In this document: piece after piece, positions 1 through 30,824 of the stretch
How positions within the stretch are numbered: the first letter of the stretch is position 1
How the letters are laid out: every line of letters starts with the position of its first letter
Assembly (NCBI RefSeq): GCF_963921235.1
Contig: NC_086108.1
Span: forward strand, 18,910,001-18,974,000
From: Mobula hypostoma
Taxonomy: Eukaryota
DNA: 64,000 nt
Direction: 5' to 3'
Position numbers and translations under genes: made by a program
Notes under the pieces: model-generated
The model's database searches: none
What the model was told of the DNA's origin: nothing
What the model saw: the letters and a program-made list of their open reading frames with translations, nothing else

Positions 1-3000
1 AGGAGGGAAGAGAGGACAGCGGTAGTGATAGAGGATTCTATAGTCAGGGGGGTAGATAGGAGATTTTGTGGGGGAGATCTGGAGTCTCGGATGGTATGTT
101 GCCTCCCTGGTGCCGGGGTCCGGGACATCTCAGATCGGTTGCAGGTTATTCTCGAGAGGGAGGACAAGAATCCAGATGTTGTAGTCCATGTAGGGACCAA
201 CGACATGGGTAGGAAGAGTGAGGGGGTCCTGCGTAGTGAGTTCAGGGAGTTAGGCGCGAAGCTGAAGGGCAGGACCTCCAGGGTAACAATCTCAGGATTG
301 CTACCTGTGCCATGTGCGAGTGAGGTGAGGAACAGAAGGATTATACAGATCAATACATGGCTGAGAGGATGGTGCAGGAGGGAGGGCTTCAGGTTTTTAG
401 ATAATTGGGGTTTGTTCCAGGGAAGGAGAGATCTGTTCCGACGGGACGGTTTACACCTGAACTGGAGGGGTACTAACATTCTTGCAGGAAAGTTTGCTAA
501 TACTGCTTGAGGGGGTTTAAACTAAATTTTCAGGGGGCAGGGATCCAGAATGTGAGAGAGGATAGCGAGATGAAGTATAAAGGACAGGTGGGGACTACGC
601 GGTTCCGGAATATTAAGTGTGAAGTAGAGAAAGGTGAGGCGGAACGAGTGATAAGGAGGATACATGTGCAGAGGGATGGTCTGACGGAGCATGGAGTTAA
701 ATGTGCAGAAAGAGTAAGTAAATTTAAGAAGGACAACAAAATTCAAGGGGCGTATAGCCCGGTGACAGTTCGGAGAGCTGGGTTATGCACAATAGGCAGC
801 AATTTAAACAGAGAGAGGAGAAATGGGTTAAAAATTCTGTATCTTAATTTACGAAGTGTCAGAAATAAGGCGGATGAGCTTGAAGCTCAGGTGCGAATGG
901 GTAACTATGATGTTGTTGGGATAACGGAGACATGGCTGCAGGGGGATCAGACCTGGGAATTGAATGCACAAGGGTATACGTGCTATCGAAGGGACAGAAA
1001 GGTGGGCAGAGGGGTTGGGGTGGCCCTGTTGGTGAGGAGTAAGATTCAGTCCCTTGCAAGGGGGGACATAGAATCAGGAGAAGTAGAGTCAGTGTGGATA
1101 AAACTGAGGAACGGTAAGGGTAAAAAGACCCTAATAGGTGTTATCTACAGGCCCCCAAACAGTAGCATGGATATTGGGTGCAAGTTGAATAGGGAGTTAA
1201 CAATGGCATGTGGCAAAGGAAATTCACAGTAGTTATGGGGGATTTCAACATGCAGGTGAACTGGGAAAATCAGGTTGGTACTGGACCCCAGGATAGGGAG
1301 TTTGTAGAGTGCCTACGGGATGCATTTTTGCAGCAGCTTGTACGAGTGCCGACCAGGGATAAGGCTATTCTGGATTTAGTGTTGTGCAATGAACAGGATT
1401 TGATAAGTGATCTTGAAGTAAAGGAGCCATTAGGAAGTAGTGACCATAATATGATAAGTTTTTATCTGCAAGTTGAGAGGGATAAGGGCAGATCAGAAGT
1501 GTCAGTATTGCAGTTGAACAAAGGAGACTATGGAGCCATGAGGGAGGAGCTGGCCAAAGTTGACTGGTCGGATATCCTAGCACAAAAGACAGTGGAACAG
1601 CAATGGCAGGTATTCTTGGGAATAATGCACAAGGTGCAAAATCAGTTCATCCCCCGGAGAAGGAAGGATTCAAAGGGGGGAAAGTGGCCACAGTGGTTGA
1701 CAAAGAAAGTCAGAGATAGCATAGCATTAAAAAAGAAGTATAACAGAGCTAAGATGAGTGGGAAGACGGATGATTGGGAAATTTTTAAGGAGCAACAGAA
1801 CTTAACTAAAAAGGCAATACGGGGAGAGAAAATGAGGTATGAACGCAAGCTAGCTAGGAATATAAAGGAGGATAGCAAAAGTTTTTTTTAGGTATGTGAA
1901 GAGAAGGAAGATAGTTAAGAACAATGTTGGGCCCTCGAAGAATGAATTGGGAGAAATTGTTATGGGAAACAGAGAAATGGCAGACGAATTTAATAAGTAC
2001 TTTGGATCTGTCTTCACTAGGGAAGACACAAGCAATCTCCCAGATGTATGGATGGGCCAAGGACATAGGGTAACAGAGGAACTGAAACAGGTTGACATTA
2101 GGAAGGAAACGGTGATGAGTAGACTGATGGGACTGAAGGCTAACAAATCCCCAGGTCCAGATGGTCTGCATCCTAGGGTACTAAAGGAGATGACTCTGGA
2201 AATTGCGGATGCATTGGTGATCATTTTCCAATGTTCCTTAGATTCAGGATCAGTTCATGAGGATTGGCGAATGGCTAATGTTAACCCACTTTTTAAGAAA
2301 GGAGGGAGGGAGAAAACAGAGAACTATCGCCCTGTTAGCCTAACATCAGTAGTGGGGAAGATGCTAGAGTCCATTATTAAAGATGAAATAGCAGCATATC
2401 TTAATAGCAGTGATAGGATTGGGCCAAGCCAGCATGGATTTACCAAGAGCAAATCATGCTTGACTAATCTATTGGAGTTTTTCGAGGACGTAACCAGGAA
2501 GATAGACGCGGGAGATTTAGTGGATGCGGTGTACCTTGACTTTCAGAAGGCATTTGATAAGGTACCACATAGGAGATTGGTGGGTAAAATCAGAGCTCAT
2601 GGCATTGGGGGGAGGATATTGACATGGATAGAAAACTGGTTGGCAGATAGAAAGCAAAGGGTAGCAGTGAATGGGTGTTTCTCGGAACGGCAGGTGGTGA
2701 CTAGTGGGGTGCCACAGGGCTTGGTATTGGGACCACAGATGTTTACAATTTATGTCAATGATTTAGAGGAAGGCATTGTGAATAACATCAGCAAGTTTGC
2801 TGATGATACTAAGCTGGGTGGCAGTGTGACGTGATGAGGATGTTAGGCGAATTCAAGGTGACTTGGATAGGCTGGGTGAGTGGGCAGAAACTTGGCAGAT
2901 GGCGGTTAATGGGAATAAGTGTGAGGTTATTCACTTTGGGAGCAAGAACAGGAAGGCAGATTATTATCTGAACGGTGTGGAGTTAGGTAAGGGTGAAATA

Positions 3001-3720
3001 CAAAGAGATCTAGAAGTACTTGTTCATCAGTCTCTGAAGGTGAATGAGCAAGTGCAGCAGGCAGTGAAGAAGGCTAATGGAATGTTGGCCTTTATTACAA
3101 AGGGAATTGAGTACAACAGCAAGGAAATCCTTTTGCATTTGTACAGGGCCCTGGTGAGACCACACCTGGAGTATTGTGTGCAGTTTTGGTCTCTAGGGTT
3201 AAGGAAGGACATCCTGGCTGTGGAGGAGGTTCAGCGTAGTTTCTCTAGGTTAACTCCTGGGATGTCTGGACTGTCTTACGCAGAGAGGTTACAGAGACTG
3301 GGCTTGTACAAGCTGGAATTAAGGAGATTGAGGGGGGATCTGATTGAGACATATAAGATTATTAAGGGATTGGACAAGATAGAGGCAGAAAATATGTTCC
3401 AGATGCTGGGAGAGTCCAGTACCAGAGGGCATGCTTTAAGAATAAGAGGTAGGTCATTCAGGACAGAGTTGAGGAGGAACTTCTTCTCCCAGAGAGTTGT
3501 GGAGGTGTGGAACACGCTGCCTCAGAAGGCAGTGGAGGCCAATTCTCTGGATGCTTTCAAGCAAGGAGCTAGATAGGTATCTTATGGATAGGGGAATCAA
3601 GGGTTATGGGGACAAGGCAGGAACCGGGTATTGATAGTAGATGATCAGCCATGATCTCAGAATGGCGGTGCAGGCTCGAAGGGCCGAATGGTCTACTTCT
3701 GCACCTATTGTCTATTGTCT
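1..3720 (+). mobile_element. CR1-clade LINE (copy A), near full length and frameshifted: ORF1 C-terminus plus ORF2 (APE endonuclease and RT)
   Basis: 25-510 SGNH-esterase-like ORF1 (DSIVRG, CLPGA, VHVGTND, DGLHLN). APE motifs GITETWL, YRPP, MGDFN, SDHN. RT motifs PGPDG, QHGF, YLDFQKAFDKV, GVPQG, KFADD. C-terminal VRPHLEYC. 3' tail (ctattgt)n ends at ~3720. Frameshifts at ~1222, ~1889 and ~2832. Confidence 0.95.
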
Positions 3721-4189
3721 TATAAAAGAGTTTAAAATTAAGAGAGGCATGCATAAGGTGTCTCAGGGCAGGGAAGTTAAAAACTACAAGACATTGGTTT
3801 TGGATGAGAAGGAAAAGGTTTAAAAGGAGCCATAGGGTCAACTTTTCACAGAGAGAATGGTGAGTTTATGAGAACTGCCAGAGGAAGTGAAGGTATAATA
3901 GTATAAATGAAGAAGCGCTTGGATATGTACACGGAGGAGTGGAGCTTGGAGGGATATGGGCCAAATGCAGGGAAGTGGGACTAGCTGGGGGGAGGGTCAC
4001 TGTGGTTGGCATTGACTGGTTACTCCAAAGAGCCTGTAACTGTGCTAAATTGCTTAATAATCATGACCAAGGTGGGTGCCTACTGCCTTACAGAAAGGTG
4101 GTTTGCACAATTCATACCCCAAGAACAAAATCCATCTTATTGATTCGATCTACGTGGATACAATCATTAATATTTTTGCTCACTTTGAT

Positions 4190-6415
4190 AAGGACAATAA
4201 GGAACTAGTGACGAGGCTCTTACACTGGACAGAGGAACTACACCAACACTGAACATATATGAGGTGAGGTGTGTACTCCGTAATGTCAACACATACAGAG
4301 CAGCAGGACCAGACGGCGTACCTAGACGGGACTGCACTGACCATCTGGAGGAAGTTCTGACGGATATTTGCAACCATCATACCAATCCCCAAGATGTCAG
4401 CAGCAACATTTCTTAATGGCTACAGATCGGCGGCCCTCACTCCCATATAGTTGCCAAGTGCTTGGAAAGATTGGTCATGTCCCACATCAAGGGCGTAATC
4501 CCAGCTATCTTGGACCAGCACCAGTTTGCCTACAGGTTGAATAGATCAACTAAAGATGCTATTTCTATCGCCCTTCATACTGTCTTGTATCACCTGGAGC
4601 ACAAGAACACTTATGTTTGGATTCTCTTACGGCGGGAGGAGAGAGAGCACGCGCCACATGTGCGCAGCCCTCCGGTGGAAAATGATATCGTATCCGTTAA
4701 GTAGGGGCCGTGGACAATTCTGATTTGATGGAGACGGACAGGAAATCACAGAGGAACATCTGGAGAAATTTCTGAAACGCTCGTTCGCTGCTGTCATTAC
4801 TGCGCGGTCGGGAATCTTCCAGAAGGAAGGCCTCAAAATCCCTGGCTTTGCCTGCTGTTGGCGACCGAGATTGAGGTCAAATCGTTCGGACAGAGATGGC
4901 GCTCAGTACTCGGTGTCGGAGAGCTGATCAGAACTCCAAGTTTTCCGATGACTCAGAGACGGATTGTGGTTGGGCGTGGCAGGGAGAGTTTTTCTTCCTT
5001 CTCCCGACTGCGTGAGATGTGGGCATTTGAGAGACTTTGAACTTTTTACCGTGCTCATGGACTTCTTCATCAAGTTATGGTATTGTTGCACTGTTGTAAC
5101 TATATGTTATAATTATGTGGTTTTGTTAGTTTTTTCAGTCTTGGTCTGTCCTGTATTTTGTGATATCACACTGGAGGAAATACTGTATCATTTCTTAATG
5201 CATGCATTACTAAATGACAATAAAAGAGGACTGCGTGTCTTCATAATCTAAATCTTTTCTTTGATTACAACTCAGCCTTTAACAGCATACTAATGAACAA
5301 GCTGACTGTAGAGCACCACTATCTACATCTCCACACATAAACCCTGTAATTGGATCTTGGTCTTCCTCACTAATTGTACCCAGATGGTGAAACTAGGCAA
5401 GCACACATCGACCCCCCCTTAACCCCAAACACAGGTGCCCCGCAGGGGTGTGTGCTGAGCCCACTTCTCTACTCTCTTCATCTATGACTGCATTCCTGTT
5501 CATGCAGCAAACTCAATCATCAACTTTGCAGATGACACAACAGTGTTTGCCTAATCACAAACAATAATGAATCTGCGTATAGAGAGGGGGGTGCTGAAAC
5601 TGTCCGATTGGTGCAGGAACCACAACCACTCAGTGGCTGAGTGAAATGGCCACTCAGCATCAAGAAGACAAAAAAAATGATAACTGATTTCAGGAAGGCA
5701 AGAGGTCCTGAACAAGCTCACTATTCATAAATGGTGAGGTAGTAGAAAGGGTCTCCACTTTCAAGTCTTTGGGGATGAACATCACCGAAAAACTCTCTTG
5801 GCTTATCGACACAACCTCAATAGTAGAGAAGACACAGCAGCAACTGTACTACCTGAGGTGCTTAAGGAGAGCTAATCTGCCCCCAGAATTGCTGGCTAAC
5901 TTTTATCAATGTGGGATAGAGAGCATACTGACATATGGAATGACAGTGTGGTACTCTAGCTGCAGCAAAACAGATCACAAAGCACTCCAACGACAGCTGG
6001 AGTAGGACAGCTCAGCACATCACTGGGCCTCAACTACTGGACCTGGAGACAATCTGCAACTCTTGATGCCTATGGCACATTCATAGAATCATTAAAGACC
6101 CATCCCATCCCAGACACTGTTTGTTCAATCTCCTGCCATCTGGTAGGAGATACAGAAGCATCTTAGCCAGGACAGTAAGGCTGAAAAACAGTTTCTTCCT
6201 GAGGGCTGTTGTGAAGCTGAATAATGCTATACCCCAGCTTGCCAATGTTCTTTGAATGTTATGGACTATCAAAGTCACTTGTTGCATGTAAATATAGTAT
6301 TTTTAAAAATTAACCTGTAGCGCATACATTGTAAATATCTGTTTTGCATGGACTGGAGTAGTACAGTAATCTTGTTGTCTTGAGCCATGACAATAAAGTT
6401 CTATTCTATTCCATC
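4190..6415 (+). mobile_element. Degenerate Rex1/Babar-like non-LTR retrotransposon (RT and 3' end), interrupted by a SINE-like insert
   Basis: Fragments read KCLERLVMSHIK...[59 protein letters not shown]. Ends with aataaa and a (ttcta)n tail. Confidence 0.8.
4630..5255 (+). mobile_element. Non-autonomous SINE-like element (~625 bp) inserted in the Rex-like RT
   Basis: Splits the RT between YVWIL and FFDYNSAFN. CpG-rich head; 3' aataaa, then hairpin gaggac..gtcttc and an aatct tail. Related copy at ~29600-30285. Confidence 0.7.
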
Positions 6416-6948
6416 CTAATATCAAACAGAAGAGACAGGCAGTACTTGGAACAGGCAGTGAACAAGGTTGCCTGGATCCCACAGGTTGAAGATTAACCAC
6501 CAGGAAGGTATGAGAAGTCATAAAATCATTAAAAGCACTGCTTTCTTTCTCCTTTCATTATTGTAGGCAGATTATTACTTCTAAAAATGAAGATGTGATA
6601 AAAAGGTTTTTTAGACTAACATTCAAGAATAATTCAATTGGCTTTTAACTTTAAAAAGTGGTCTTATAGAAGGAAATGAATCTGTCATGATGAAATGGTG
6701 GAGCAAAATGGATGACGGGCCGACTGGCCTATTTCTGCTCCTACATCTTATGGTCTAACTACAGATGCTAGAATCTGGAGTAACAAGGTATCTGCTGAAG
6801 GAATTCAACAGCTCAATCAGCATCTGTTGGGCAAGGGGAAAGAGCTGTCAACATTTCAAATGTCTACATCAGTCCTGAAACTTTGACAATTCCTTCCCCC
6901 AACCAATGGTCAACCTGACATCCTAAAGCAGATTGGTTTGTTGTTCCA

Positions 6949-7188
6949 CAAACACAAGAAAATCTGCAGATGCTGGAACTCCAAGCACCACATAACATCC
7001 TGGGGGAACTCAGCAGGCCAGGCAACATCTATGGAAAAGAGTACACAGTGATGTTTTGGGCTGAGACCCTTCATCAGGACTGTCCTGATGAGTCCTGATG
7101 AAGGGTTGCAGCTGAAACATCAACCGTGAACTCTTTTCCATCGATGCTGCCTGACCTGCTGAGTTCCTCCAGCATTTTGTGTGTGTGC
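6949..7188. mobile_element. Palindromic (fold-back) Penelope-derived mini-element with degenerate hammerhead motifs
   Basis: Two inverted copies of the Penelope terminal sequence joined at tcatcaggac-t-gtcctgatga (7071-7091). Probable TSD ttgttgtt(c/t)ca at 6938-6948 and 7189-7199. Confidence 0.75.
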
Positions 7189-7379
7189 TTGTTGTTTCAA
7201 TTGGCTGACGAAGGTAGGGCCTCACAATGATGGACATGCGGGTGACAAATATGCATGTGATGGGGCAGGACAATCTATTTTAGGAGTGAAACCCCCAGGC
7301 AAACTTCCAAATAAAATCAGTTAGCTTAAGTGGAGACACAAAGACTGAAATTGCTGGAATCTGGAGGAACAAGTAATCT

Positions 7380-9795
7380 TAAACACGAGGAATTCTGCAG
7401 ATGCTGGAAATTCAAGCAACACACATCAAAGTTGCTGGTGAACGCAGCAGGCCAGGCAGCATCTCTAGGAAGAGGTACAGTTGATGTTTCGGGCTGAGAT
7501 CCTTCATCAGGACTAACTGAAAGAAGAGCTAATACGAGATTTGAAAGTGGGAGGGGGAGGGGGAGATCCAAAATGACAGAAGAAGACAGGAGGGGGAGGG
7601 ATGGAGCCAAGAGCTGCACAGGTGATTGGCAAAAGGGCTATGAGAGGATCATGGGACAGGAGGCCCAGGGAGAAGGAAAAGGGGAAGGGGGGAAAAACCC
7701 AGAGGATGGGCAAGGGGTATAGTCAGAAGGACAGAGGGAGAAAAAGGAGAGAGAGAGAAAGAATGTGTATATATAAATAAATAACGGATGGAGTACGAGG
7801 GGGAGGTGGGGCATTAGCAGAAGTTAGAGAAGTCAATGTTCATGCCATCAGGTTGGAGGCTACCCAGATGGAATATAAGGTGTTGTTCCTCCAACCTGAG
7901 TGTGGCTTCATCTTTACAGTAGAGGAGGCCGTGGATAGACATATCAGAATGGGAATGGGATGTGGAATTAAAATGTGTGGCCACTGGGAGATCCTGTTTT
8001 CTCGGGTGGACAGAGCCTAGGTGTTCAGCAAAACAATCTCCCAGTCTGCTTCGGGTCTCGCCAACATATAAAAGGCCACATCAGGAGCACCGGACGCAGT
8101 ATATCACCCCAGCCGACTCACAGATGAAGTGTTGCCTCACCTGGAAGGACTGTCTGGGGCCCTGAATGGTGGCAAGGGAAGAAGTGTAAGGGCATGTGTA
8201 GCATTTGTTCTGCTTACAAGGATAAGTGCCAGGAGGGAGATCAGTGGGGGGGGGGATGGGGGGGACGAATGGACAAGGGAGTCGCGTAGGGAGCGATCCC
8301 TGCGGAAAGCAGGGGGGGAGGGAAAGATGTGCTTAGTGGTGGGATCCTGTTGGAGGTAGTGGAAGTTACAGAGAAAAAGTTACAGAGGCTGGTGGGGTGG
8401 TAGGTGAGGACCAGGGGAACCCTATTCCTAGTGGGGTGACGGGAGAATGGAGTGAGAGTAGATGTGCGTGAAATGGGGGAGATGCATTTGAGAGCAGAGT
8501 TGATGGTGGAGGAAGGGAAGCCCCTTTCTTTAAAAAAGTAGGACATCTCCCTCATCCTGGAATGAAAAGCCTCATCCTGAGAGCAGATGCGGTGGAGATG
8601 GAGTAATTGCGAGAAGGGGATGGCATTTTTGCAAGAGACAGGGTGAGAAGAGGAACAGTCCAGATAGCTACCCCACCTCCAACGGGATCCCACCAATAAG
8701 CACATCTTTCCCTTCCCCCTTCTCTCTGCTTTCCACAGAGATTGCTCCCTACTCGACTCCCTTGTCCATTCGTCCCCCCCACCCCTCCCCACTGATCTCC
8801 CTCCTGGCACTTATCCTTGTAAGCAGAACAAGTGCTACACATGCCCCTACACTTACTCCCTTACCACCATTCAGGGCCCCAGACAGTCCTTCCAGGTGAG
8901 GCGACACTCCACCTGTGAGTCGGCTGGGGTGATAAATAACGGTTGGGGTACGAGGGGGAGGTGGGGCATTAGCGGAAGTTAGAGAAGTCAATGTTCATGC
9001 CATCAGGTTGGAGGCTACCCAGATGGAATATAAGGCGTTGTTCCTCCAACCTGAGTGTGGCTTCATCTTTACGGTAGAAGAGGCCGTGGATAGACATGTC
9101 AGAATGGGAATGGTGCTCCGGTGCTCCCGATGTAGCCTTCTATATATTGGCGAGACCCAAAGCAGACTGGGAGATTGTTTTGCTGAACACCTACACTCTG
9201 TCTGCCAAAGAAAGCAGGATCTGCCAGTGGCCACACATTTTAATTCCACATCCCATTTCCATTCTGACATGTCTATCCACGGCCTTCTCTACCATAAAGA
9301 TGAAGCCACAGTCAGGTTGGAGGAACAACACCTTATATTCCATCTGGGTAGCCTCCAACCTGATGGCATGAACATTGACTTCTCTAACTTCCACTAATTC
9401 CCCACCTCCCCCTCGTACCCCATCCGTTATTTATTTATTTATATATACACATTCTTTTTCTCTCTCTCCCTTTTCTCCCTCTGTCCCTTTCACTATACCC
9501 CTTGCCCATCCTCTGGGTTTCCCCCCCCTTTTCTTTCTCCCTAGGCATCCTGTCCCATGATCCTCTCATATCCCTTTTGCCAATCAACTGTCCAGCTCTT
9601 GGCTCCGTCCCTCCCCCTCCTGTCTTCTCCTGTCATTCTGGATCTCCCCCTCCCCCTCCCACTTTCAAATCTCTTATTAGCTCTTCTTTCAGTTAGTCCT
9701 GATGAAGGGTCTCAGCCCGAAACGTCGACTGTACCTCTTCCTAGAGATGCTGCCTGGCCTGCTGTGTTCACCAGCAACTTTGATGTGTGTTGGTT
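7380..9795. mobile_element. Penelope-like element (RT C-terminus and GIY-YIG endonuclease) arranged as a ~2.4-kb inverted duplication
   Basis: Minus arm: YLD.SSSHPVSCKNAIPFSQ...RICS (PLE RT thumb region). Plus arm: C..C.LLYIGET..RL..CFAEH...PVATHFN...LEEQHLIF.LGSLQPDGMN (GIY-YIG). Arms ~7420-7950 and ~9260-9795 are near-identical inverted copies. TSD gaacaa(g/a)taatct at 7367-7379 and 9796-9808. Confidence 0.88.
9694..9731 (+). ncRNA. Minimal type I hammerhead ribozyme (intact core) in the Penelope-like terminal repeat
   Basis: tagtc [stem I] ctgatga [core] a gggt-ctca-gccc [stem II] gaaa cg tc^ gactg [stem I']. Stem III is reduced to the palindrome ACGU. Predicted cleavage after 9726. Confidence 0.8.
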
Positions 9796-10339
9796 GAACA
9801 AATAATCTGCTGGAAGAACTCAGCAATACTGTGATAGAACAACCAACTAGCAAGTTGTACAGAAAGTGATATAACTAACAATCTGGGATCACAGTGCTGA
9901 CCTTCCACACAACACCTCAATGAGGCACTGGGTTTTATTTCTTGAAGACCTTGGAGTCAACCAAGTACTCCAAGAGTCTACAGTCAGAAATTCTTCACCT
10001 TTTTTATTAACTGCAATAACAAGATAAAGTTCCTGGCCTTCTGAAGCACCTTCAATTACTCCAAAAGACTGAGGTTTGGTAAAATACTGAAAGGCTTTTA
10101 TTCGCTGTACAATACGACCTCCACAGTGAGTGTCTGCCCCCGGACTGAGGGGGAGGGGCAAGGCGAACACCTTTATACAGGACTCTGTGGGAGGAGCCAC
10201 AGGGGCAGTCAGCAGAGGGGTGTGTCCAGACAGGTAACCGAGTTACAACATATATACATGGCTTACCACATTCACCCCTCCTTTTTTTAAAAAGAGTCCC
10301 ACGGGGTGAAGTGACTGACAATATTTACAAGAAGTATAT

Positions 10340-11505
10340 TTACAGGTTAAGTCTATCAGGCGGTCGAGTCCGTCGCTGTGATCTACGTAGCACCGGCGAT
10401 GGCAGTTGTGCTGCCTCTGGCCTGACTTCAGGTGCCAGCACGTTAGGCGTCGGTAATCCCTTGTGCGTGTGCGTCGCGCCCGGTATGGGAGTGTCGTGTG
10501 GTGTCTGTATAGGGTTTGGGGTGCACGGTGTCTCGTAGGTACATACATTGGTGGGTACGGGGTCAATAGTCACCACGGAGTGTTCAGGGTAGGGGCCCGG
10601 AGCTCCTGCGGGCGCCAGGTCGCAGATGGAGACCGTGCCCTCCCGCCCATCAGGTAAAACCACGTAGGCATACTGGGGGTTCGCATGAAGTAAGTGAACC
10701 CTCACAACTATCGGGGAGTATTTATTGCTCCTCGCATGTTTCCGGAGCAACACTGGCCCCGGGGACGTCAGCCAAGATGGTAGGGTGGTTCCAGTGGTCC
10801 ATTTTCTGGGAAAAGAAAAGAGCCGCTCATGAGGGGTGGCATTGGTGGCTGTGCATAACAGGGAGCGGATGGAGTAGAGTGCCTCGGGAAGGACCTCCTG
10901 CCAGCGGGAGACCGGCAGTCCCTTTGACCTGAGGGCTAAGAGTGTGGCTTTCCACACTATGCCATTCTCCTTCTCTACCTGTCCATTCCCCCGGGGATTA
11001 TAGCTCGTGGTCCTACTGGTTGCAATTCTCCTAGCCAGTAGATATTGGCGCAGCTCGTCACTCATAAACGAGGACCCTCTGTCACTGTGGATATAGCATG
11101 GGTATCCGAACAGAATGAAGAGCTTGCGCAGGGCTTTTATAACTGATGTGGTAGTGGTGTCGGGGCAGGGGATGGCGAAGGGGAACCGCGAGTACTCGTC
11201 AATTACGTTAAGAAAGTACACATTGCGGTCGGTGGAGGGAAGGGGGCCCTTAAAGTCAACACTCAGTCGCTCAAAGGGGCGGGTGGCCTTGATGAGTGGT
11301 GCCTTTTCGGGTCGGTAGAAGTGCGGTTTGCACTCTGCGCAGACTTGGCAGTCCCTGGTCATCATCCTGATCTCCTCAAGGGAGTAAGGCAGGTTCCGGG
11401 CTTTCACAAAGTGGAAAAGCCGGGTGACTCCCGGGTGGCAAAGGTCTACATGTAGGGCGTATAGCCGGTCGATCTGCGCGCTGGCGCATGTTCCCCGGGA
11501 TAGGG
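10340..11505 (-). pseudogene. Gypsy pol fragment: integrase
   Basis: HHCC zinc finger (H..LCHPG...CQVC), DDE core (SVDFKGPLP, IDEYSRF, HSDRGSSF, GNGQVE), Pro-rich C-terminus ending LRRSQR..RPPDRL. Confidence 0.9.
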
Positions 11506-12560
11506 CTGTACATGATGTCATAGTTGTAGGTGGAGAGTTCGATTCTCCACCTCAGAATTTTATCATTTTTGATTTTGCTCCGCTGCTGATTATTAAACAT
11601 GAATGCAACTGAGCGCTGGTCAGTTAGCAGGGTGAACCTTTTGCCGGCAAGATAGTGCCTCCAGTGCCTTATAGCTTCCACTATGGCCTGGGCCTCTTTC
11701 TCTACCGCAGAGTGCCGAATTTCAGGGCCTTGAAGGGTACGGGAGAAGAACGCCACCGGTCTTCCCGCCTGGTTGAGGGTAGCAGCCAGCACAAAGTCGG
11801 AGGCGTCACTCTCTACTTGGAAGGGAATGGCCTCATCCGCCACATGCATTGTTGTTTTGGCAATGTCCCCTTTTATGCGGCTGAAGGCTGCGCGGGCCTC
11901 AGCTGAGAGGGGGAATGTGGTGGACTTGACCAGGGGGCGGGCCTTGTCTGCATAGTTAGAGACCCATTGGGCATAATATGAAAAGAAGCCCAGGCACTTT
12001 TTGAGGGCTCTGAGGGTATTGGGAAGAGGGAGTTCCAACAAGGGGCGCATACGGTCGGGGTCAGGGCCAATGACTCCATTCTCCACGACACACCCAAGGA
12101 TAGCAAGTCGGGTGGTCCCAAATACACACTTGTCCTTGTTATAGGTGAGGTTGAAAGATTTGGCCGCTTGGAGAAATTTTTGGAGATTGTTGTCATGATC
12201 CTGCTGGTCGTGACCGCAGATGGTGATGTTATCCAGATATGGGAACGTGGCCTTCAGTTGGCACTGGTCCACCATCCAGTCCATTGCCCTCTGGAAGACA
12301 GATACACCATTCATGACACCAAAGGGGATGCGCAGGAATTGATAAAGCCTGCCGTCCGCCTCGAAGGCAGTGTAAGGGCGGTCCTCCCGGCGGATGGGGA
12401 GCTGATGGTAAGTGGATTGTAGGCCTATGGTCGAGTACACCTTGTACTGTGCTATCTGATTGACCATATCCGCTATGCGGGGTAGAGGGTACGCGTCAAG
12501 CTGCGTGAACCTATTGGTGGTCTGGCTATAGTCCACGACCATCCTATTCTTCTCCCCGTT
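11505..12560 (-). pseudogene. Gypsy pol fragment: reverse transcriptase and RNase H
   Basis: RMVVDY, DAYPLPRI, TAF, PFG, YLDNITICG, K..F, LGFFSYY; RNase H ESDASD, VAFFSRTL, EKEAQAI, LLTDQRS. A small deletion at ~11505 frameshifts the link to integrase. Confidence 0.88.
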
Positions 12561-13250
12561 CCGGACTGAGGGGGAGGGGCAAGGCGAACACCTTTATACA
12601 GGACTCTGTGGGAGGAGCCACAAGGGCAGTCAGCAGAGGGGTGTGTCCAGACAGGTAACCGAGTTACAACATATATACATGGTTTACCACACCTTGTTAA
12701 ATGTGAAATGCCAATCTTGTCTATAATTATATAATTTACCATCAGAGTTGTTCCATGCAGAGCTGAATGTAACAAAGAGAAATGGCACTACCTGGTAAGT
12801 GCAAATCTTTCTCAAACCCCACATTGTGCAAAATGCCATATTTATCATTTAACACCAGGGAGGGCTTCTCTAGATCCTGTTCAACAGCTGGGAGGAAGCA
12901 GTGGGGAGATAAACGAGAAATCTAGCTTAGAGCTCTTGCACTTGAAGGGGAGGTGGAAGTGGGAACATATAGGGTTGGTGATCCTCATCTGACCAATCTT
13001 TTGTATTTTTGGCTCATCTACTCACATTCTACCTTTCCCCTTTCCGCCAATGTTCCAGCTATCCAGTACTGTACCCTTTCTTCTCGTCTTCAGGTTGACC
13101 ACAGTCATTGCAGCATAAACAAGACTCCTTCAGTCTGACACTATATTTAAGTTCCTTTGCTCCCCACAGATAAATCACTTTTCACTTGGAATTTTATTTG
13201 GCATTTCCTTATATTGCTTATCAATGGCAAACCCTCTTAATCAAGTTTTC

Positions 13251-13364
13251 TGCTGAAGGGTCTCCACCTGAAACTTCCATAGATACTGCCTGGCCTGCTG
13301 AGTTCCTCCAGTATTTTGTGTGTGTTGCTTGGATTTCCAGCATCTGCAGATTTTCTCTTGTTTG
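13251..13364 (+). mobile_element. Penelope-derived mini-insert starting at a degenerate hammerhead core
   Basis: Begins (c)tgctgaagggtc...tgaaac and continues with the Penelope terminal sequence. TSD taatcaa(g/a)ttttc at 13238-13250 and 13365-13377. Confidence 0.75.
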
Positions 13365-13940: not shown

Positions 13941-16637
13941 GAATTGTGCCCCTCCCAAACTGAGTAAAATTCAAACACAATAATCCCTTACCGTTGGATT
14001 ACTAATTATATACACAGGCTTAAAAAAAGATTTCTATTTGGTTTCAAGAAGTACTGTCTCAGAAAATTTTATTGAATGCATTCCATGGAATTCATCCTCC
14101 AAACTACTTTTGCCAGTTTAATCAGCCCATTCTACAGGAAGTTTAAAATGTCCCAAACTATTCCATTACTTTGCCCAAGGTTTGTACAGACATTCTGAAA
14201 AAGAACTGATCCATTTATAATCTTACCCCCTCTTAGATGATACTTTAAATAGACAGGGAAAGTTGTTATTAGCTTACTGTTCTTCAACAGGCATCAATCA
14301 AACGAATCAAATGAGTGAACGTCCACACCTGCCAATGGGAAATACTCAGAAAGTCAGGCAGGGTTTGTAGAAAGAGAAATAGAGCTAAAATTTGAGGGTG
14401 AAGATCCTGCTCTGTTGAGGAATCTTGAGGTTAATTAGGTTTCTCTCTCCACAAATGCTCCTTGACCTGCATTTCCTGTAAATTGTCTATTTTCTCCTTG
14501 GTGTTTATGGTACTGTATCTTGCTCTGCACAGATCAGCAGGGGCCTTTCCTGTGTAATGACAGTGACTAGTCTTCAAAAGCTGAAATATCCTGTGGATGA
14601 AAAGAACACTAAATACACTTTACATTTTTTTAAACTTTAGTCAGATTCACACAGCAATTCCAGCTCTGTGGGAGAGGCTTCCCAGTGCCTCTTGCTCTCT
14701 CATATCTTCCACTTTGGCACAGTGTCCGATTTCTTTCTAGTTTCCCCATCTGCAAAGTGCCTTGGGGTGTTGTTCTACATTAAAGGTGCTGTACAAGATG
14801 CACCATTGCTTTGATTGTCAGATTGGAAGCCCGTGAAACTATCTCCCAGAGAGAATCTATGCCTTAAGGAGAGGAAGGAGGAGAAGTTGTGGCAAGTCAT
14901 AAATCAAAGAAAGAACTGGCCTGCCACTGAAGCTCAAGGGTTTTTAAGTGCGTAAATTCTTGGAAGAGTGCATGGTTGCATTTCAATGGCTGTTTTGAAA
15001 ACAGTGGATAACTATTTAATTTGTGCGGCATTTTCTGCAAATTGTGCAGTCAGGAGCCTGGGTGAAGGGTGACTAACTCTGGAGTACGATGTGGAATGGT
15101 CTGATTCTTCTCGGCAAGCTTAGAGTGTAGACGATCAGCTCCCGCCCTGTTATTAATCACCTCCTACCCTGACAGCCCTGATCCTTAGATAAAAGGAAGC
15201 CACTGCAAAACAGACTGAAATCAAAACAGGGCTGAAAAAATAAAACCCTCAATGTATCATATTCTCAGCAATGTTACTGGGCGGGATGCCAATTACATTA
15301 CACTAACCGGTTCACCACAGGTTCCTAGTCTCGTCGCACTTTTCCTGCTCACACGTTATTTACACACCTCCCCAGCATCCCTCCTCCTCAAAAATAAAAT
15401 CTACCATGTCCTGGAGCTCTTTGTTTCTTGTCACCCAGCCAGCTCTCTGCCCATGTCTGCACCATACCACCTGTCCCACCTGCTTTAATCTTGCACTCTG
15501 CTATGGAACCTCATCGAAATTTTCCTGGAAGTCCAAATGCAGCACATCCACTGATCCTTTTGTATTTATTCTCCTGGTGTATCCTGAAAGTAGTTCAGTG
15601 AGTTTGTCAAGAATGATTTTCCTTCAGTAAATTTGTGGCAGATTGCAGGGCTAGGGAGGTGTGCTGGCACGCCATATGTGGAAAGAAATCTCCCATTTCT
15701 GTGCTTCACAAACTCTAGTCCCTCCCTGGGCAAGCACAGGCCAGCTTTCATCCTAGGTAGTCAACTAGTTCCCTCTCACTGAAGCAAATGCCCATCTACC
15801 ACACCTCACAACAGAGGGAGTGGGTGGAGGGAGGGTAAAAGGAATGTAGGGTAAAGTACAGTGTCCATTTTGCAGTTGCCATTGCATAAGTGGGCCAGTG
15901 TAGGAGTGGGAATCTGAGGGTTTTGACTCACAAGACTTCAATGAGGAGGCACTGATGAGTAACAGGTAAGGTTGATTTATAGTAGTTAAATAAAAACACA
16001 ACAAATCACAACTAATGAAACAAAGTATACAGGATCAAGTGATGTGTTGTAGCTACATGATAATAGGAGATGGTGGATGCAATTGTAGATATTAGTAAAG
16101 CCTCAGCATCACATGCTTGCTCTTATGTTCCAGTCCTTTCAAAATGATTGCTAAGATTGCATTTGCCTTCCTTACCTACCAGTTAAACTTTAGGGAATTC
16201 TGCACAATGACTCCCAAGTCCCTTTCCAAGTCCTATTTTTGAATTTTCTCCCAGTTTAGAAAGTAGTCCACGCCTTTATTCCTTCTATCAAAGTGCATGA
16301 ACATACACTTCCCTGTGCTATATTTCATCTGCCACTTCTTTGCCCATTTTTCCAATCTGCCCAAGTCCTTACCTGCTTCCGCAATACTACCTGCCCCTGC
16401 ACCTATGTTTGTATCATCTGCAAATCTGGCCACAAATCTATCAATCCCATCATCCAAATCATTTACAAGAAGCGATCCCAATATCGACTCTTGTGGAACA
16501 CCACTTGCCACCGGCAGCCAACCAGAATAGGCCCCTTTTATTCTGACTCTTTGCCTCCTGCCAGTCAGCCAACGTTCTATCCATGCTAGTATCTTTCCTG
16601 TAATACTGTGGGCTCTTACCTTGTTAAGCAGCCTCAT

Positions 16638-19600
16638 GACATAGGCAGGAAAAGGGAAGAGGTCCTGAAAGGAGAATATAGGGAGTTAGGAAGGGAGTTG
16701 AGAAAAAGGACCGCAAAGGCAGTAATCTCGGGATTATTGCCTGTGCCACACGACAGTGATAGTAGGAATGCGATGAGGTGGAGGATAAATGCGTGGCTGA
16801 GGGATTGGAGCAGGGGGCAGGGATTCAAGTTTTTGGATCATTGGGACCTCTTTTGGCGCAGGTATGACCTGTACAAAAAGGATGGGTTACACTTTAATCC
16901 TAGGGGGACCAATATCCTGGCGGGGAGATTTGCGAGGGCCACTGAGGTGACTTTAAACTAGAATGGTTGGGGGTGGGAATCAAATTAAAGAAACTAGGAG
17001 AGAGGAGGTTAGTTCACAACAGAGGGATGGGAACCAGTGCAGAGAGACAGAGGGGTGTAAAATGAGGGTAGAAGCAAAAAGTAGTAAGGTGAAAAGTAAA
17101 AGTGGCAGGCCGGCAAATCCAGGGCAAAAATCAAAAAGGGCCACATTTTAACGTAATTGTATAAGGGCTAAGTGTGTTGTAAAAGCAAGACTGAAGGCTT
17201 TGTGTGTCAATGCAAGGAGCATTCGTAACAAGGTGGATGAATTAAAAATGCAGATTGTTATTAATGAATATGATATAGTTGGGATCACAGAGACATGGCT
17301 CCAGGGTGACCAGGGATGGGAGCTCAACATTCAGGGATTTTCAATATTCAGGAGGGATAGACATGAAAGAAAAGGAGGTGGGGTAGCATTGCTGGTTAGA
17401 GAGGAGATTAATGCAATAGAAAGGAAGGACATTAGCCGGGAAGATGTGGAATCGATATGGGTAGAGCTGCGTAACACTAAGGGGCAGAAGACGCTGGTGG
17501 GATTTGTGTACAGGCCATCTAACAGTAGTAGTGAGGTTGGGGATGGTATTAAACAGGAAATTAGAAATGTGTGCAATAAAGGAACAGCAGTTATAATGGG
17601 TGACTTCAATCTACATATAGATTGGGTGAACCAAATTGGTAAGGGTGCTGAGGAAGAGGATTTCTTGGAATGTATGCGGGCTGGTTTTTTGAACCAACAT
17701 GTCGAGGAACCAACTAGAGAGCAAGCTATTCTAGACTGGGTATTGAGCAATGAGGAAGGGTTAATTAGCAATCTTGTCATGAGAGGCCCCTTGGGTAAGA
17801 GTGACCATAATATGGTGGAATTCTTTATTAAGATGGAGAGTGACATAGTTAATTCAGAAACAAAGGTTCTGAACTTAAAGAAGGGTAACTTTGAAGGTAT
17901 GAGACGTGAACTAGCTAAGATAGACTGGCAAATGACACTTAAAGGGTTGACAGTGGATATGCAATGGCAAGCATTTAAAGATCGCATGGATGAACAACAA
18001 CAATTGTTCATCCCAGTTTGGCAAAAGAATAAATCAAGGTAGTGCACCCGTGGCTGACAAGGGAAACTAGGGATAGTATCAATTCCAAAGATGAAGCATA
18101 CAAATTAGCCAGAAAAAGTGGCTCACCTGAGGACTGGGAGAAATTCAGAGTCCAGCAGAGGAGAACAAAGGGCTTAATTAGGAAGGGGAAAAAAGATTGT
18201 GAGAGAAAACTGGCAGGGAACATAAAAACTGACTGTAAAAGCTTTTATAGATATGTGAAAGGAAAAAGATCGGTTAAGACAAATGTAGGTCCCCTACAGA
18301 CAGAAACAGGTGAATTGATTATGGGGAGCAAGGACATGGCAGACCAACTGAATAACTACTTTGGTTCTGTCTTCGCTAAGGAGGACATAAATAATCTTCC
18401 GGAAATAGTAGGGGACAGAGGGTCTAGTGAGATGGAGGAACTGAGGGAAATACATGTTAGTAGGGAAGTGGTATTCGGTAAATTGAAGGGATTAAAGGCA
18501 GATAACTCCCCAGGGCCAGATGGTCTGCATCCCAGAGTGCTCAAGGAAGTAGCCCAAGAAATAGTGGATGTATTAGTGATAATTTTTCAAAACTCTTTAG
18601 ATTCTGGACTACTTCCTGAGGATTGGAGGGTGGCTAAGGTAACCCCACTTTTTTAAAAAGGAGGGAGAGAAACCAGGGAATTATAGACCGGTTAGCCTAA
18701 CATCGATGGTGGGGAAAATGCTAGAGTCAGTTATCAAAGATGTGATAACAGCACATTTGGAAAGCAGTGAAATCATCGGACAAAGTCAGCATGGATTTCT
18801 GAAAGGAAAATCATGTCTGATGAATCTCATAGAATTTTTTGAGGATGTAACTAGTAGAGTGGATAGGGGAGAACCAGCGGATGTGGTATATTTGGATTTT
18901 CAAAAGGCTTTTGACAAGGTCCCACACAGGAGATTAGTGTGCAAACTTAAAGCACACGGTATTGGGGGTAAGGTATTGATGTGGATAGAGAATTGGCTGG
19001 CAGATAGGAAGCAAAGAGTGGGAATAAACGGGACCTTTTCAGAATGGCAGGCAGTGACTAGTGGGGTACCGCAAGGCTCAGTGCTGGGACCCCAGTTGTT
19101 TACAATATATATAAATGACTTAGATGAGGGAATTAAATGCAGCATCTCCAAGTTTGCAGATGACACAAAGCTGGGCGGCAGTGTTAGCTGTGAGGAGGTT
19201 GCTAAGAGGATGCAGGGTGACTTGGATAGGTTAAGTGAGTGGGCAAATTCATGGCAGATGCAATTTAATGTGGATAAATGTGAGGTTATCCACTTTTGTG
19301 GCAAAAACAGGAAAACAGATTATTATCCATATGGTGGCCGATTAGGAAAAGGGGAGGTGCAACGAGACCTGGGTGTCATTATGCACCAGTCATTGAAAGT
19401 GGGCATGCAGGTACAGCAGGCGGTGAAAAAGGCGAATGGTATGCTGGCATTCATAGCAAGAGGATATGAGTACAGGAGCAGGGAGGTACTATTGAAGTTG
19501 TACAAGGCCTTGGTGAGACCACACCTGGAGTACTGTGTGCAGTTTTGGTCCCCTAATCTGAGGAAAGACATCCTTGCCATAGAGGGAGTACAAAGAAAGT

Positions 19601-20090
19601 TCACCAGATTGATTCCTGGGATGGCAGGACTTTCATATGATGAAAGACTGGATCGACTAGGCTTATACTCGTTAGAATTTAGAAGATTGAGGGGGGATCT
19701 TATTGAAACATATAAAATCCTAAAGGGATTGGACAGGCTAGATGCAGAAAGATTGTTCCCAATGTTGGGGAAGTCCAGAACGAGGGGTCACAGTTTGAGG
19801 ATAAAGGGGAAGCCTTTTAGGACCGAGATTAGGAAAAACTTCTTCACACAGAGAGTGGTGAATCTGTGGAATTCTCTGCCACAGGAAACAGTTGAGGCCA
19901 GTTCATTGGCTATATTTAAGAGGGAGTTAGATATGGCCCTTGTGGCTAAAGGGATCAGGGGGTATGGGGGGAAGGCTGGTACAGGGTTCTGAGTTGGATG
20001 ATCAGCCATGATCATACTGAATGGTGGTGCAGGCTCGAAGGGCCGAATGGGCTACTCCTGCACCTATTGTCTATGTTTCTGTGTTTCTAT
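16638..20090 (+). mobile_element. CR1 LINE (copy B): ORF1 3' end plus ORF2, frameshifted
   Basis: ORF1 remnant ISGLLPVP..DGLHFN; APE 17200-18042; RT 18042-19992 (YLDFQKAFDKV, GVPQG, KFADD). Tail ctattgt/ctatgttt. Confidence 0.95.
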
Positions 20091-21094: not shown

Positions 21095-24000
21095 AGAACA
21101 GGGAACATAGAAATCTACAGCACATTACAGGCCCTTCTGCCCACAATGCTGTGCTGACCATGTAACCTACTCCAGAAACTGCCTAGAATTTCCCTACCAC
21201 ATAGCCCTCTATTTTTCTAAGCTCCATGTACTTATCTAAGAGTCTCTTAAAAGACCCTGTTGTATCCGCTTCCACTGCCGCCACCAGCAGTGCATTCCAT
21301 GCACCCACCACTCTCTCTGTGAAAAACTTACCCCTGACATCCCCTCGGTACCTATTTCCAAGCACCTTAAAACTATGCCCCTCGTGTTAGTCATTTTAGC
21401 CCTAGGTATCCAACAATCAATGCCCCTCATCATCTTATACACCTCTATCAGGTTCCCTCTCATCCTCCATCGCTCCAAAGAGAAAAGGCCAAGTTCACTC
21501 AATCTATTCTCATGAGGCGCACTCTCTAATCCAGGCAACATCCTTGTAAATCTCTTCCGCACTCTTTCTATAATATCCACATCCTTCCTGTAGTGAGGGG
21601 ACCAGAACGGAACACAGCACTCCAAGAGGGGTCTGACCAAGGTCTTATACAGCTGTAACATTACTGCACGGCTTTTGAATTCAATCCCATGGTTGATGAA
21701 GGTCAACACACCATACACCTTCTTAACAACACTGTCAACTTGACTTTGAGTGTCCTATGGATATGGAATCCAAGATCTCTCTGATCCTCCACCCTGCCAA
21801 GAGTCTTACCATTAATATTATATTCCGTCTTCAAATTTGACCTACCAAAATGAACCACTTCACACTTATCTGGGTTGAACTCCATCTGTCACTTCTCAAC
21901 CCAGTTCTACATCCGATTGATGTCCCGCTGTAACCTCTGACAACCCGCCAGACTATCCACAACATCCTCAACCTTTGTGTCATCAGCAAACTTACTAACC
22001 TACCCTTCTACTTCCTCATCCAGAACAGATCCCTGTGGAACACCACTGGTCACTGACCTCCATGCAGAATACAAACCATCTACAATCACTCTTTGCCTTC
22101 TTGGCAAGTCAATTCTGGATCCATAAAGCAAGGTCTCCTTGGATCCCATGCCTCCTTACTTTCTGAATGAGCCTCGCATGGGGAACCTTACCAAATGCCT
22201 TACCGAAATCCATATGCACTACATCCACTGCTCTACCTACATCAATATGTTTTATTGCATCCTCAAAGAATTCAATCAGGCTCGTAAGGCACGACCTGCC
22301 CTTGACAAAGCCATGCTGTCTATCTCTAATCAGATTACGTCTCTTCAAATGCTCATAATTCCTAACTCTCAGGATCTTCTCCAACAACTTGCCCACCACT
22401 GAAGTAAGATTCACTGGTCCATAATTTCCTGGGTTATCTCTACTCCCTTTCTTGAACAAGGGAACAATGGTTACAACCTTCCAATCCTCTGGTACTTCTC
22501 CTGTCCCTATTGATGATGCAAAGATCATTCCAGAAGCTCAGCAATCTCCTCACTCGCTTCCCACAGTAGCCTTGGATATACCTCATCCTGTCCCAGCAAC
22601 GTATCGAACTTATAACTTTTCAAAAACTCCAGTACATCCTCTTTCTTAATGTCTATAAGCTCACGCTTTTCAGTCCACTGTAAATCATCCCACAATTGCC
22701 AAAGTTCTTTTCCCTGGTGAATACTGAAGCAAAGTATTCATTAATTACCTCCACTACCTCCATGCACGTTTCCACTATCACACCTGATTGGTCCCATTCT
22801 CACACAACTATTGCTCTTCACATACTTGTAGAATGCCTTGGGGTTTTCCTTAATCCTGCTCACCAAGACCTTCTCATGGCCCCTACCAGCTCTCCTAATT
22901 TCATTCTTCATTTACTTCCTGGCAACCTTGTAATATTTTAGAGCTCTATCAGTACCTAATTTCTTGAACTTTTTGTAAGCTTTTCTTTTTTACTTAACTA
23001 GATTTTCCACACTCTTTGTACACTGTGGTTCTTTCACCCAACCATTCTTTCCCTCCCTCAATGGAAAATATCTATGCACACCTCCATGCAAATGTTCCTT
23101 GCACATATGCCACATTTCTGCTGCGCATTTCCCTGAAAACACCTGCTCACAATTTATACTCCCAAGTGTCTGTCAAATGTTTTCCCTAAGAGGGATGGGA
23201 CCCATAGCGATGGAGCAGCGAAAGAAGTGCATGGAGTAAAGCCAGATCAAAACATATAGAGAGGCTTTGAGGAAAGAGAAGCAGAATAAACGGAGTAAAG
23301 ACAGTAAGGTAGAAGGGCTGAGGTGTGTGTACCTCAATGCAAGAAGCATCAGGAACAAAGGTGATGAACTGAGAGCTCAGATACATACATGGAATTATGA
23401 GGTAGTGGCCATTACAGAGACTTGGCTGGCACCAGGGCAGGAATGGATTCTCAATATTCCTGGATTTCAGTGCTTTAAAAGGGATAGAGAGGGCGGAAAA
23501 AGGGGAGGAGGGGTGGCATTATTGGTCAGGGATACTATTACAGCTACAGAAAGGGTGGGTAATGTAGCAGGATCCTCTTTTGAGTCAGTATGGGTGGAAG
23601 TCAGGAACAGGAGGGAGCAGTTGCTCTATTGGGGCTATTCTATAGGCCCCCTGGTAGCAGCAGAGATACAGAGGAGCAGATTGGGAGGCAGATTTTGGAA
23701 AAGTGCAAAAATAACAGGGTTGTTATCATGGGTGACTTTAACTTCCCTAATATTGATTGGCCACCTGATTAGTTCCAAGGGTTTAGATGGGGTAGAGTTC
23801 ATTAAATGTGTCCAGGACGGATTCCTGTCACAGTACGTGGACAGGCTGACTAGGGGGAATGCCATACTAGATCTAGTACTAGGTAATGAACCCGGGTCAG
23901 GTCACAGATCTCTCATTGGGTAAGCATCTGGGAGACAGTGACCACCGCTCCCTGGCCTTTAGCATTATCATGGAAAAAGATAGAATCAGAGATGACAGGA

Positions 24001-27000: not shown

Positions 27001-27167
27001 GATATCCTGCTTCTCAGCATCCTCCCTAATTCCTAATTCCCTGTATTCTGCTTTCAGGATCTCGTTTCTTTTTCTAACTATGTCTTTGGTACCAATATGT
27101 ACGAAAATATCTGGCTGCTCACCTTTCCATTTCAGGATATTGTGGATGTGTTCAGAAACATCACGAA
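21095..27167 (-). mobile_element. CR1 LINE (copy C), in pieces 21095-~23173 and ~26036-27167
   Basis: 3' tail near 21095; RT fragments 21236-22528; APE (VAITETW) 26443-26670; ORF1 esterase (VHIGTKD, DGLHLN) 26754-27165. Flanked by agcat duplication at 21090-21094 and 27168-27172. Confidence 0.88.
23174..26035 (+). mobile_element. CR1 LINE (copy D) ORF2, nested in copy C and lacking its 3' tail
   Basis: APE (YLNARSIRNK, AITETWL, MGDFNFP, DSDH) and RT (QHGF, GVPQG, KFAED) ORFs 23267-26034. Ends abruptly before the 3' UTR. Confidence 0.92.
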
Positions 27168-28679
27168 AGCATCTTCCCAACTACTGATGTCAGGCTGATT
27201 GGCCTATAATTCCCTTTCTTCTGCCTGCCTCTCTTCTCAAAGAGTGGAATGACATTTTTAACTTTCCAGTCCTCCAGAACCTTTCCAGAATCTAGTGATT
27301 CTTGAAAGATCATTACTAATGCCTCCACAATCTCTTCAACTACCTCTTTCAGAACCCTGTGATGTAGTCCATCTGGTCCAGGTGACTTATCTACCTTGAA
27401 ACCTTTCAGCATCCCAAGCTCCTTCTCCTTATTAATAGTAACTACATTCACTTGTGCGTCCTGACACCCTCGTATTTCTGGCACACTGCCAGTGTCTTCT
27501 ACAGTGAAGACTGATGCAAAATATTTAATTCAGTCTGTTCGCAAATTTCTTTATCCCCCATTACTACCTCTCCAATATCATTTTCCAGCAGTCCAATATC
27601 CACTCTCGCCTCTCTTCTACTCTTTATACCTGTATATCTGTAAAACATTTGATGTTTTTGGCTAGCCTACCTTCATATTTCATCTTTTCTCTCATGTTTC
27701 TTTTAGTTGTATTCTGCTAGTTTTTAAAAGCTTCCCAATCCTCCAACTTCCCACAAATGTTTGGTGTAATAATTTGCTTTTATGCTGTTTTGACTTCCCT
27801 TGTCAGCCGTGGTTGTCTCATATTCCCTTTAGAATACTTCTTTGGGATGTATCTACCTTGTACCTTCCAAATTGCACCCAGAAATCCAGTCTTTGTCGCT
27901 CTGCCATCAACCTTGCTAGTGTTCCCTTACGATTACCTTTGGCCAGCTCCTCTGTCATGCCTCTGTAATTCCACTTTACTCTACTGTAATACTGATACAT
28001 CTGACTTTAGCTGCTCCTCTCAAACTTCAGGGTGAACACTGTCATATTATGATCACTGTCTCCCAAGCGTTCCTTTACCTAAAGCTCCCTAATCAAATCT
28101 GGTTCATTGCAGAACACACAATCCAGAACTGACTTTCCCCAAGTGGGCTGAACTACCAGCACTTTTAAAAAGCCATCTCATGGGCATTCTACAAATTCCT
28201 TCTCTTGGGATCCAGCACCAACTGATTTTCCCAATCTACTTGAGTATTGAAATCCTCATGACTATTGTAACATTGCCCTTATTACATGCCTTTTCTATTT
28301 CCCATTGACTGTTTTATCCCACATTATGCCTACTGTCAGGGGCCTGTATATAACTCACATTAGTGTCTTTTACCCTTGCAGTTTCTTAACTCTACCCACA
28401 TGGATTCTGCATCTTCCCATCCTATGTTACTTCTTTCTATGGTTTTGATTTCATTTTTTATCAACAGGGCCACCCCCACCCCCTCTGCCTATCTGCCTGT
28501 CATTTTGGTTTAAGGTATACCCTTGGATGTTAAGCTCCCAACTATGATCTTCTTTCAGCCACGACCCAGTGATGCCCACATCACACCTGCCAATTTCTAA
28601 TTGCACTACAAGATTATCTATTTTATTCCATATCCTGTGTGTATTCATGTATATTAATATATTGTCCTTACCTACTACC

Positions 28680-30610: not shown

Positions 30611-30824
30611 AATTATTTACTGTTATCTTTGTGTTGAAGAAGTATAGAACATCACATCAGGAGAGTGAGACTCTTTTGGATTCTCCTGGAGAGTTGCTAT
30701 GTGAATAAAGAATTTATTTTTCTCAGTTACAGCTTCCATGTGGCTCAGCTTTAGTCTGTCACAACAATTACCAGAGCCAGGCACAACAGGGCACAGGGTT
30801 AATAAGATCAGAGAGCTAAATACA

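Follow-up and report, generated by a model that had tools for sequence, protein, structure and literature searches.

A minimal type I hammerhead ribozyme motif in the terminal repeat of a Penelope-like element of the ray Mobula hypostoma

A 64,000-nt stretch of the Mobula hypostoma genome (contig NC_086108.1 of assembly GCF_963921235.1, positions 18,910,001 to 18,974,000; hereafter the window) holds at 9694-9731 of its plus strand a 38-base motif that an earlier note, made from the letters alone, described as an intact hammerhead ribozyme in a Penelope-like terminal repeat. The locus raises the questions of whether this motif is a genuine hammerhead, which element carries it, and whether, as the note proposed, element RNA is processed through pairing and cleavage of two copies.

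The motif is a genuine minimal type I hammerhead (min-HHR) of the terminal repeat of a Penelope-like element (PLE), a kind of ribozyme that is already known. The three copies claimed as intact were recovered with zero mismatches and with the right coordinates and strands, their mismatch-free core motifs spanning 9699-9726 (+), 35211-35238 (+), and 55907-55934 (-). The copies and the anatomy of the flagged one are as follows:

9694-9731, plus strand: flagged intact min-HHR (sequence, motif scan, descriptor, covariance model)
9694-9698 with 9727-9731, plus strand: stem I of the flagged copy (sequence)
9699-9705, plus strand: core of the flagged copy (sequence)
9706, plus strand: extra A of the flagged copy (sequence)
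9707-9718, plus strand: stem II of the flagged copy (sequence)
9719-9722, plus strand: G12-A15.1 of the flagged copy (sequence)
9722-9725, plus strand: 4-nt palindrome of the flagged copy (sequence)
after 9726, plus strand: predicted cut of the flagged copy (sequence)
35206-35243, plus strand: intact min-HHR; the 5'-truncated copy that carries it spans about 34828-35307 and is flanked by a 16-bp target-site duplication (1 mismatch) (scan, model)
55902-55939, minus strand: intact min-HHR in a hammerhead-plus-tail insertion of about 100 nt (55842-55941) inside a LINE (alignment, model)

The complete catalytic core (C3-A9, G12-A15.1, U16.1, and H17) is present in all three, in agreement with the claim that no core nucleotide is missing, and the minimal type I architecture with a vestigial, palindromic stem III was likewise borne out, since loop 3 is absent and positions 15.2/16.2 are palindromic. 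The flagged copy has the G10.1-C11.1 pair; in the other two, U at 11.1 makes it a wobble pair. The extra A after CUGANGA had been taken for a family-specific feature, but the general consensus, in the accessible part of the source, is CUGANGAH (PMC4209133), and 21 of 22 unique relatives also have an A at this place. A 6-nt palindrome at 9724-9729 straddles the predicted cut site. Every sequence-level feature of the published min-HHR is found here, extra nucleotide included, and self-cleavage as a dimer or with protein help is predicted.

That the likeness to a hammerhead arose by chance is almost certainly wrong. A motif scan allowing up to three mismatches gave six matches in the window against 0.00 across 100 shuffles, a generic type I hammerhead descriptor matched exactly three loci (mean 0.01, maximum 1 in 200 dinucleotide shuffles), and a covariance model built only from 20 relatives outside the window placed the three intact copies on top, with rough E-values of 5e-9 to 7e-7. 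In favor of chance, Rfam gives no hammerhead match at E<=5, as foreseen in the claim that a standard repeat annotation would miss the motif; the Rfam matches at 58941-59051 arise from a short inverted pair there and not from hammerhead families. The shuffle controls, the covariation described below, and the independent covariance model refute it.

The Penelope-like terminal repeat was correctly named as the home of the motif, which lies on the sense strand in the pseudo-LTR (pLTR) behind the ORF. About 300 nt separate the stop of the GIY-YIG-type ORF (9395-9397) from the motif at 9694, and the hammerhead lies 70-110 nt ahead of the two 3' ends of the element. The flagged copy is part of the right arm of a single inverted insertion (7380-9798) whose two arms are 92% alike:

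7367-7379: left copy of the 13-bp target-site duplication (1 mismatch) of the inverted unit (alignment)
7380-8670, minus strand: left arm with RT/thumb end, CX4CxxC linker, endonuclease, pLTR, hammerhead, and long-form tail (alignment, translation)
8675-9397, plus strand: right-arm coding remnant with CX4CxxC linker and GIY-YIG-type endonuclease (ORF/translation)
9398-9798, plus strand: pLTR/3' region with pyrimidine-rich stretch, hammerhead, and short-form tail (sequence, alignment)
9796-9808: right copy of the 13-bp target-site duplication (alignment)

The right-arm coding remnant is split by an inverted copy (8932-9113) of its own downstream sequence, and the left arm has an endonuclease (8242-7820) with one stop and a decayed hammerhead (7478-7515). 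The whole unit apparently landed in the tail of an older family member (7337-7379 and 9799-9830). The 64-kb window contains only truncated copies of the element; full-length relatives carry DKG, RT, the CX4CxxC linker, and the GIY-YIG endonuclease. The closest named proteins, which lead the 13 longer homologues found, are from Mobula and Hypanus (91% and 84% identity, respectively). Among seven close homologues, Pfam gave GIY-YIG in four (E 5e-4 to 2e-3) and RVT_1 in one, all below the Pfam cut-offs, while three protein fragments of the window gave no Pfam match; this support is weak but consistent. A CX2-5CxxC linker distinguishes the Neptune and Nematis clades; in the portion of the source at hand, inverted partners with a 30-40 bp tail on one arm are given as typical of these elements (PMC8557442). 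The element is most likely a Neptune-type, endonuclease-bearing PLE of the ray, with Nematis as a less likely placement. Five named ray and skate protein models (P0003, P0004, P0008, P0010, and P0013) include translated pieces of the element, through either exonisation or annotation error. Scans for the tail motif gave one unrelated match in viral contigs and none in metagenomes, and a protein scan of viral contigs confirmed none of 19 candidates.

Conservation was assessed in the best 80 of 383 confirmed metagenome loci, taken by protein; the 49 with 400 nt or more beyond the estimated ORF end were used, and the 31 with less were set aside. Both core strings occur behind the ORF in 25 of these 49 protein-anchored loci when pairing is not required; with pairing required, the motif was found in 20/49 on the sense strand, in 1/49 on the reverse strand, and in none of 100 shuffles. 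The remaining 24 relatives lack the exact core, and five of them have a near match with one change. Stem I pairs 1 to 3 each form in 20 of 22 unique relatives, compared with 7, 4, and 11 of 22 in a slid control, and 15.2/16.2 pairs in 20 of 22 as well (CG 18, TA 1, TG 1). The covariation of stems I and II proposed as a check is indeed seen, with a score, which is not a probability, of 0.83 against 0.20 for shuffled and at most 0.13 for slid alignments of 20 pre-selected, related sequences; seven of eight pairs show two-sided changes among the same pre-selected relatives. The invariant letters are the catalytic ones, and the stem letters exchange freely. Several relatives share the hammerhead of the Acropora Neptune entry in the accessible part of PMC4209133. 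Another relative (L069) has a canonical-type hammerhead on the minus strand, some 680 nt past the end of the ORF, which differs from the Neptune-type motif in its 6-nt palindromic stem III and the absence of the extra base.

The proposal that two copies pair through the palindrome and process element RNA fared less well. As a monomer, the motif is predicted to fold into an inactive rod, its core base-paired to the cut-site strand, with a probability of 0.001-0.012 for a hammerhead-like open fold. The active double hammerhead is compatible with a nested fold but lies 8.7-20.6 kcal/mol above the best alternative fold, by nearest-neighbor energies that ignore the non-canonical pairs and stacking of the core; the same gap occurs in 20/20 relatives (5.5-16.3 kcal/mol), so the ray family is not singled out. 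The self-duplex of the cut-straddling 6-nt palindrome is also stronger than that of the 4-nt stem III palindrome (-10.3 vs -1.7). In published experiments, as far as the available parts of the papers go, the monomer is without activity and the dimer has low activity in vitro (PMC4209133), and the hammerhead of the Anolis Poseidon element PAc cuts only with the protein of the element, while uncut RNA is the insertion substrate; core mutants abolish cleavage, a double mutant restores it partly, insertion is unaffected by the core mutants, and no RNA-seq ends are reported at the cut (Frangieh et al., 2024, PMC11167929).

Target-site duplications were searched in 7 of the 13 hammerhead- or tail-bearing units of the window and were found in 7/7, with lengths of 11-16 bp and scores of 9-14; of 400 random anchors, eight reach a score of 9 and one reaches 11. 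The clearest case is the 100-nt unit at 55842-55941, which has a perfect 11-bp duplication and an empty site in a LINE paralogue near 1985. The other short units are as follows:

6950-7191: short inverted pair with decayed hammerheads at 7045-7082 (-) and 7089-7127 (+), both arms beginning at the 5' edge of stem I; 11-bp duplication (alignment)
13250-13363, plus strand: short insertion from the core on, cut-site region deleted, long tail; 13-bp duplication (alignment)
42248-42354, minus strand: short insertion whose start lies 5 nt upstream of the predicted cut, with a long tail and a 14-bp duplication (alignment)
58885-59072: short inverted pair with its joint inside stem II; perfect 11-bp duplication (alignment)

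All seven duplication-bounded units retain sequence upstream of the predicted cut and none begins at it, the closest start being that at 42354. Because sequence upstream of the cut is kept in 7/7, these insertions derive from uncut RNA or from a re-ligated circle; they record only RNAs that got copied and are silent on the share of RNA that is cut. Three units of the window are inverted, each with one long and one short tail, and copies are solo or inverted only, with no same-strand tandem pair within any single element of the window.

These results bear directly on the model of the earlier note and of Cervera, in which copies in a tandem transcript pair via the palindrome, self-cut, and release a unit-length, perhaps circular, insertion template. 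The palindrome is kept and covaries (the CG, TA, and TG pairs above), the nested fold is possible, the low dimer activity in vitro agrees with the model, and a circular template would likewise yield insertions that span the cut. The model is nevertheless unlikely, given the absence of units that start at the cut, the energy gap and the stronger rival 6-nt duplex, the insertion by core mutants in Anolis, and the absence of a cut-site end among the loose ends listed for run X1.

Another alternative is that the motif is retained as a structure, a protein-binding site, or a site of RT pausing rather than as a cutter. The 5' ends or inversion joints of 5/5 short units (7081/7091, 13250, 42354, 55941, and 58996) lie in or border the 38-nt motif, which hints at an RT stop or an RNA start there, and Naiad elements spread without canonical hammerheads in the portion of PMC8557442 available. 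This reading is quite improbable, as invariance is confined to precisely the catalytic letters and the stems exchange freely, and the Anolis mutants described above lose and partly regain cleavage (PMC11167929, accessible part).

Decay across the family was followed in run X1, in which 109,365 contig pieces, which are not a copy count, align to 9400-9900 at 80% likeness. The eight variants listed within the motif are all at CpG sites. The depth-weighted contig share of the CpG-decayed letter, which comes from an incomplete count and is not a copy number, is 53% at N7, 43% in loop II, and 34% for the 11.1 wobble, and it reaches 17% at G12, which exceeds the background of 10-14% at 15.2, 16.2, 17, and 1.1; the variation in stem III, C17, and 1.1 is symmetric, as CpG decay predicts. 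The source elements appear to keep the core; inserted copies would decay neutrally, and tolerated changes would become fixed in the sources. The commonest loose ends among those listed in X1 are at 9695-9697 and 9730-9734, the edges of stem I, and those at 9730-9734 rejoin the tail; because they fall at both stem I edges, other subfamilies share the motif without its immediate flanks, and the 5' loose ends mix truncations with older subfamilies.

Within the window, the core or stem III is damaged in 9 of 12 aligned copies. The nine decayed copies given in the earlier note can all be aligned, but only those at 7045 and 7478 pass the covariance model at E<0.01; the scores at 7090, 31703, 38703, and 40562 are at noise level, and 13250, 33250, and 47716 are absent from the model matches at E<=10. 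The locus given as 7050-7125 consists of two copies on opposite strands, and the partial copies at 42248-42354 and 58885-59072 were absent from that list. The statement that the changes are mostly of CpG type holds at core and stem III positions (15/26) but not overall (33 of 91 differences) in the 12 aligned copies. The remaining decayed copies are as follows:

31703-31740, minus strand: decayed hammerhead of an older subfamily (alignment)
38703-38740, minus strand: decayed hammerhead of an older subfamily (alignment)
40562-40598, plus strand: decayed hammerhead 3' of an endonuclease remnant (40173-40313) (alignment)
47714-47753, plus strand: strongly decayed hammerhead with a tail remnant (alignment)
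33245-33285, plus strand: doubtful remnant with 15 differences in 38 nt, tail absent, missed by blastn and the model (alignment)

In addition, a copy at 30540-30613 has a pLTR end and a tail, its hammerhead being deleted internally.

It is highly improbable that the host has co-opted the flagged copy for cutting or regulating a transcript. Three copies are intact, and the one at 55902 (-) would be in sense if the LIM-domain gene with an exon near 48056-48271 on the minus strand were transcribed across it. The intact copies, however, belong to a subfamily that is young, judging from arms 92% alike; the palindrome is gone from the sister arm of the flagged insertion; and most aligned copies are damaged as counted above.

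The reading that we prefer, with a probability of roughly 0.7, is that a slow, conditional ribozyme is selected in the source elements, that insertions are copied from uncut RNA, and that the copies in the window are passive passengers. Selection would act in the few transposing source elements, where the ribozyme would be a slow, conditional cutter. Stem III is modeled to require a second copy, joined via the 4-nt palindrome, and the element's own protein is probably required as a chaperone, by analogy with a Schistosoma element and the Anolis Poseidon element, neither of which is a Neptune. Reverse transcription of new insertions would start at a tail site on uncut RNA; the cut would not be the source of the template and would more likely trim or retire element transcripts at another step. 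The window copies, including the flagged one, would be truncated passengers in neutral decay. The steps from anatomy to catalysis are inferred from folding models and from these analogous elements.

A more speculative and very unlikely extension is that sense-oriented intact copies in host introns are switched on in trans by the element protein or a partner RNA and cut host pre-mRNAs, as a retroelement-triggered ribozyme network. If this were true, the short hammerhead-plus-tail units with 5' ends clustered at the motif would be the spreading form of the network, and the abundance of the family would place many intact sense copies in introns, possibly including 55902 in the LIM-domain gene.

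Several other features were noted around the motif. A pyrimidine tract at 9440-9692 ends in CAG just before stem I (AG at 9690-9692) and resembles a splice acceptor, as do the sequences before other copies, and the insertion at 55842-55941 begins there. A splice acceptor is not supported: of 22 relatives, one alone has an AG close to stem I, and the ratio of loose ends at 9697 to those at 9695 is 0.27 in run X15 (presumed RNA) and 0.30 in the DNA run. An ORF start at the ATG of the core was rejected, as C stands at position 7 in both other intact copies and accounts for 47-72% of the aligned depth. The LIM-domain exon (about 48056-48271, within 47996-48330, minus strand) has a GT donor, its best solved matches are Lhx4/Lhx3, and no homeodomain motif was found in six frames. 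We presume that this exon resembles LMX1A. The window also contains an LTR retrotransposon at 10140-12691, whose two 131-nt repeats share 98% of their letters and whose minus strand carries RT, RNase H, and integrase frames, and many LINE-type RT/endonuclease remnants at 501-3576, 16233-19992, 21236-27529, and 54119-56477, two of which are 95-99% alike.

The ray hammerhead resembles the metazoan PLE min-HHR, as presented in the accessible parts of PMC4209133, in its type I topology, full core, extra nucleotide between 9 and 10.1, G10.1-C11.1, missing loop 3, palindromic 15.2/16.2, short stem I, U-rich upstream sequence, pLTR position, many solo copies, and opposite-strand pairs. Cartilaginous fish, however, are absent from Table S1 and Figure S3 of that work, the stem I/II letters of the ray are its own, and its copy number, judged from the contig pieces of X1 and not from a copy count, looks far above the 4,000-9,000 given there. 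Similarly, the element shares with the Neptune EN+ PLEs (PMC8557442; Acropora digitifera entry, PMC4209133; both as available) a C-terminal GIY-YIG, the CX2-5CxxC linker, and inverted 5'-truncated partners with a 30-40 bp tail on one arm only (PMC8557442), but the seven ray units have no microsatellite targets and show clear 11-16 bp duplications. The Anolis PAc element has, in the part of PMC11167929 at hand, a pLTR hammerhead ahead of two 3' ends, insertions from uncut RNA, mostly AT-rich targets, and insertion into its own pLTR, which the 7380-9798 unit apparently repeats; it belongs to another clade, and its protein dependence and start sites were measured directly. The non-LTR retrozymes (bioRxiv 10.64898/2026.07.22.740005) are likewise described, in the portion available, as short, non-coding, PLE-pLTR-derived units with type I hammerheads, but they form head-to-tail arrays with hammerheads in consecutive units, and none occurs in the window. 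The same portion describes retrozymes and sampled PLEs from one chondrichthyan; the ray family may be among them. No description of a ray PLE hammerhead family or of elasmobranch hammerhead ribozymes was found in the literature searched outside subscription journals and Repbase.

This kind of hammerhead has been in print since 2014, and a ray family is added to it here. Its large size and young age make the family suitable material for work on the role of PLE hammerheads: with so many copies, one can ask statistically whether new insertions begin at the cut in any case and whether selection on the core is confined to source elements.
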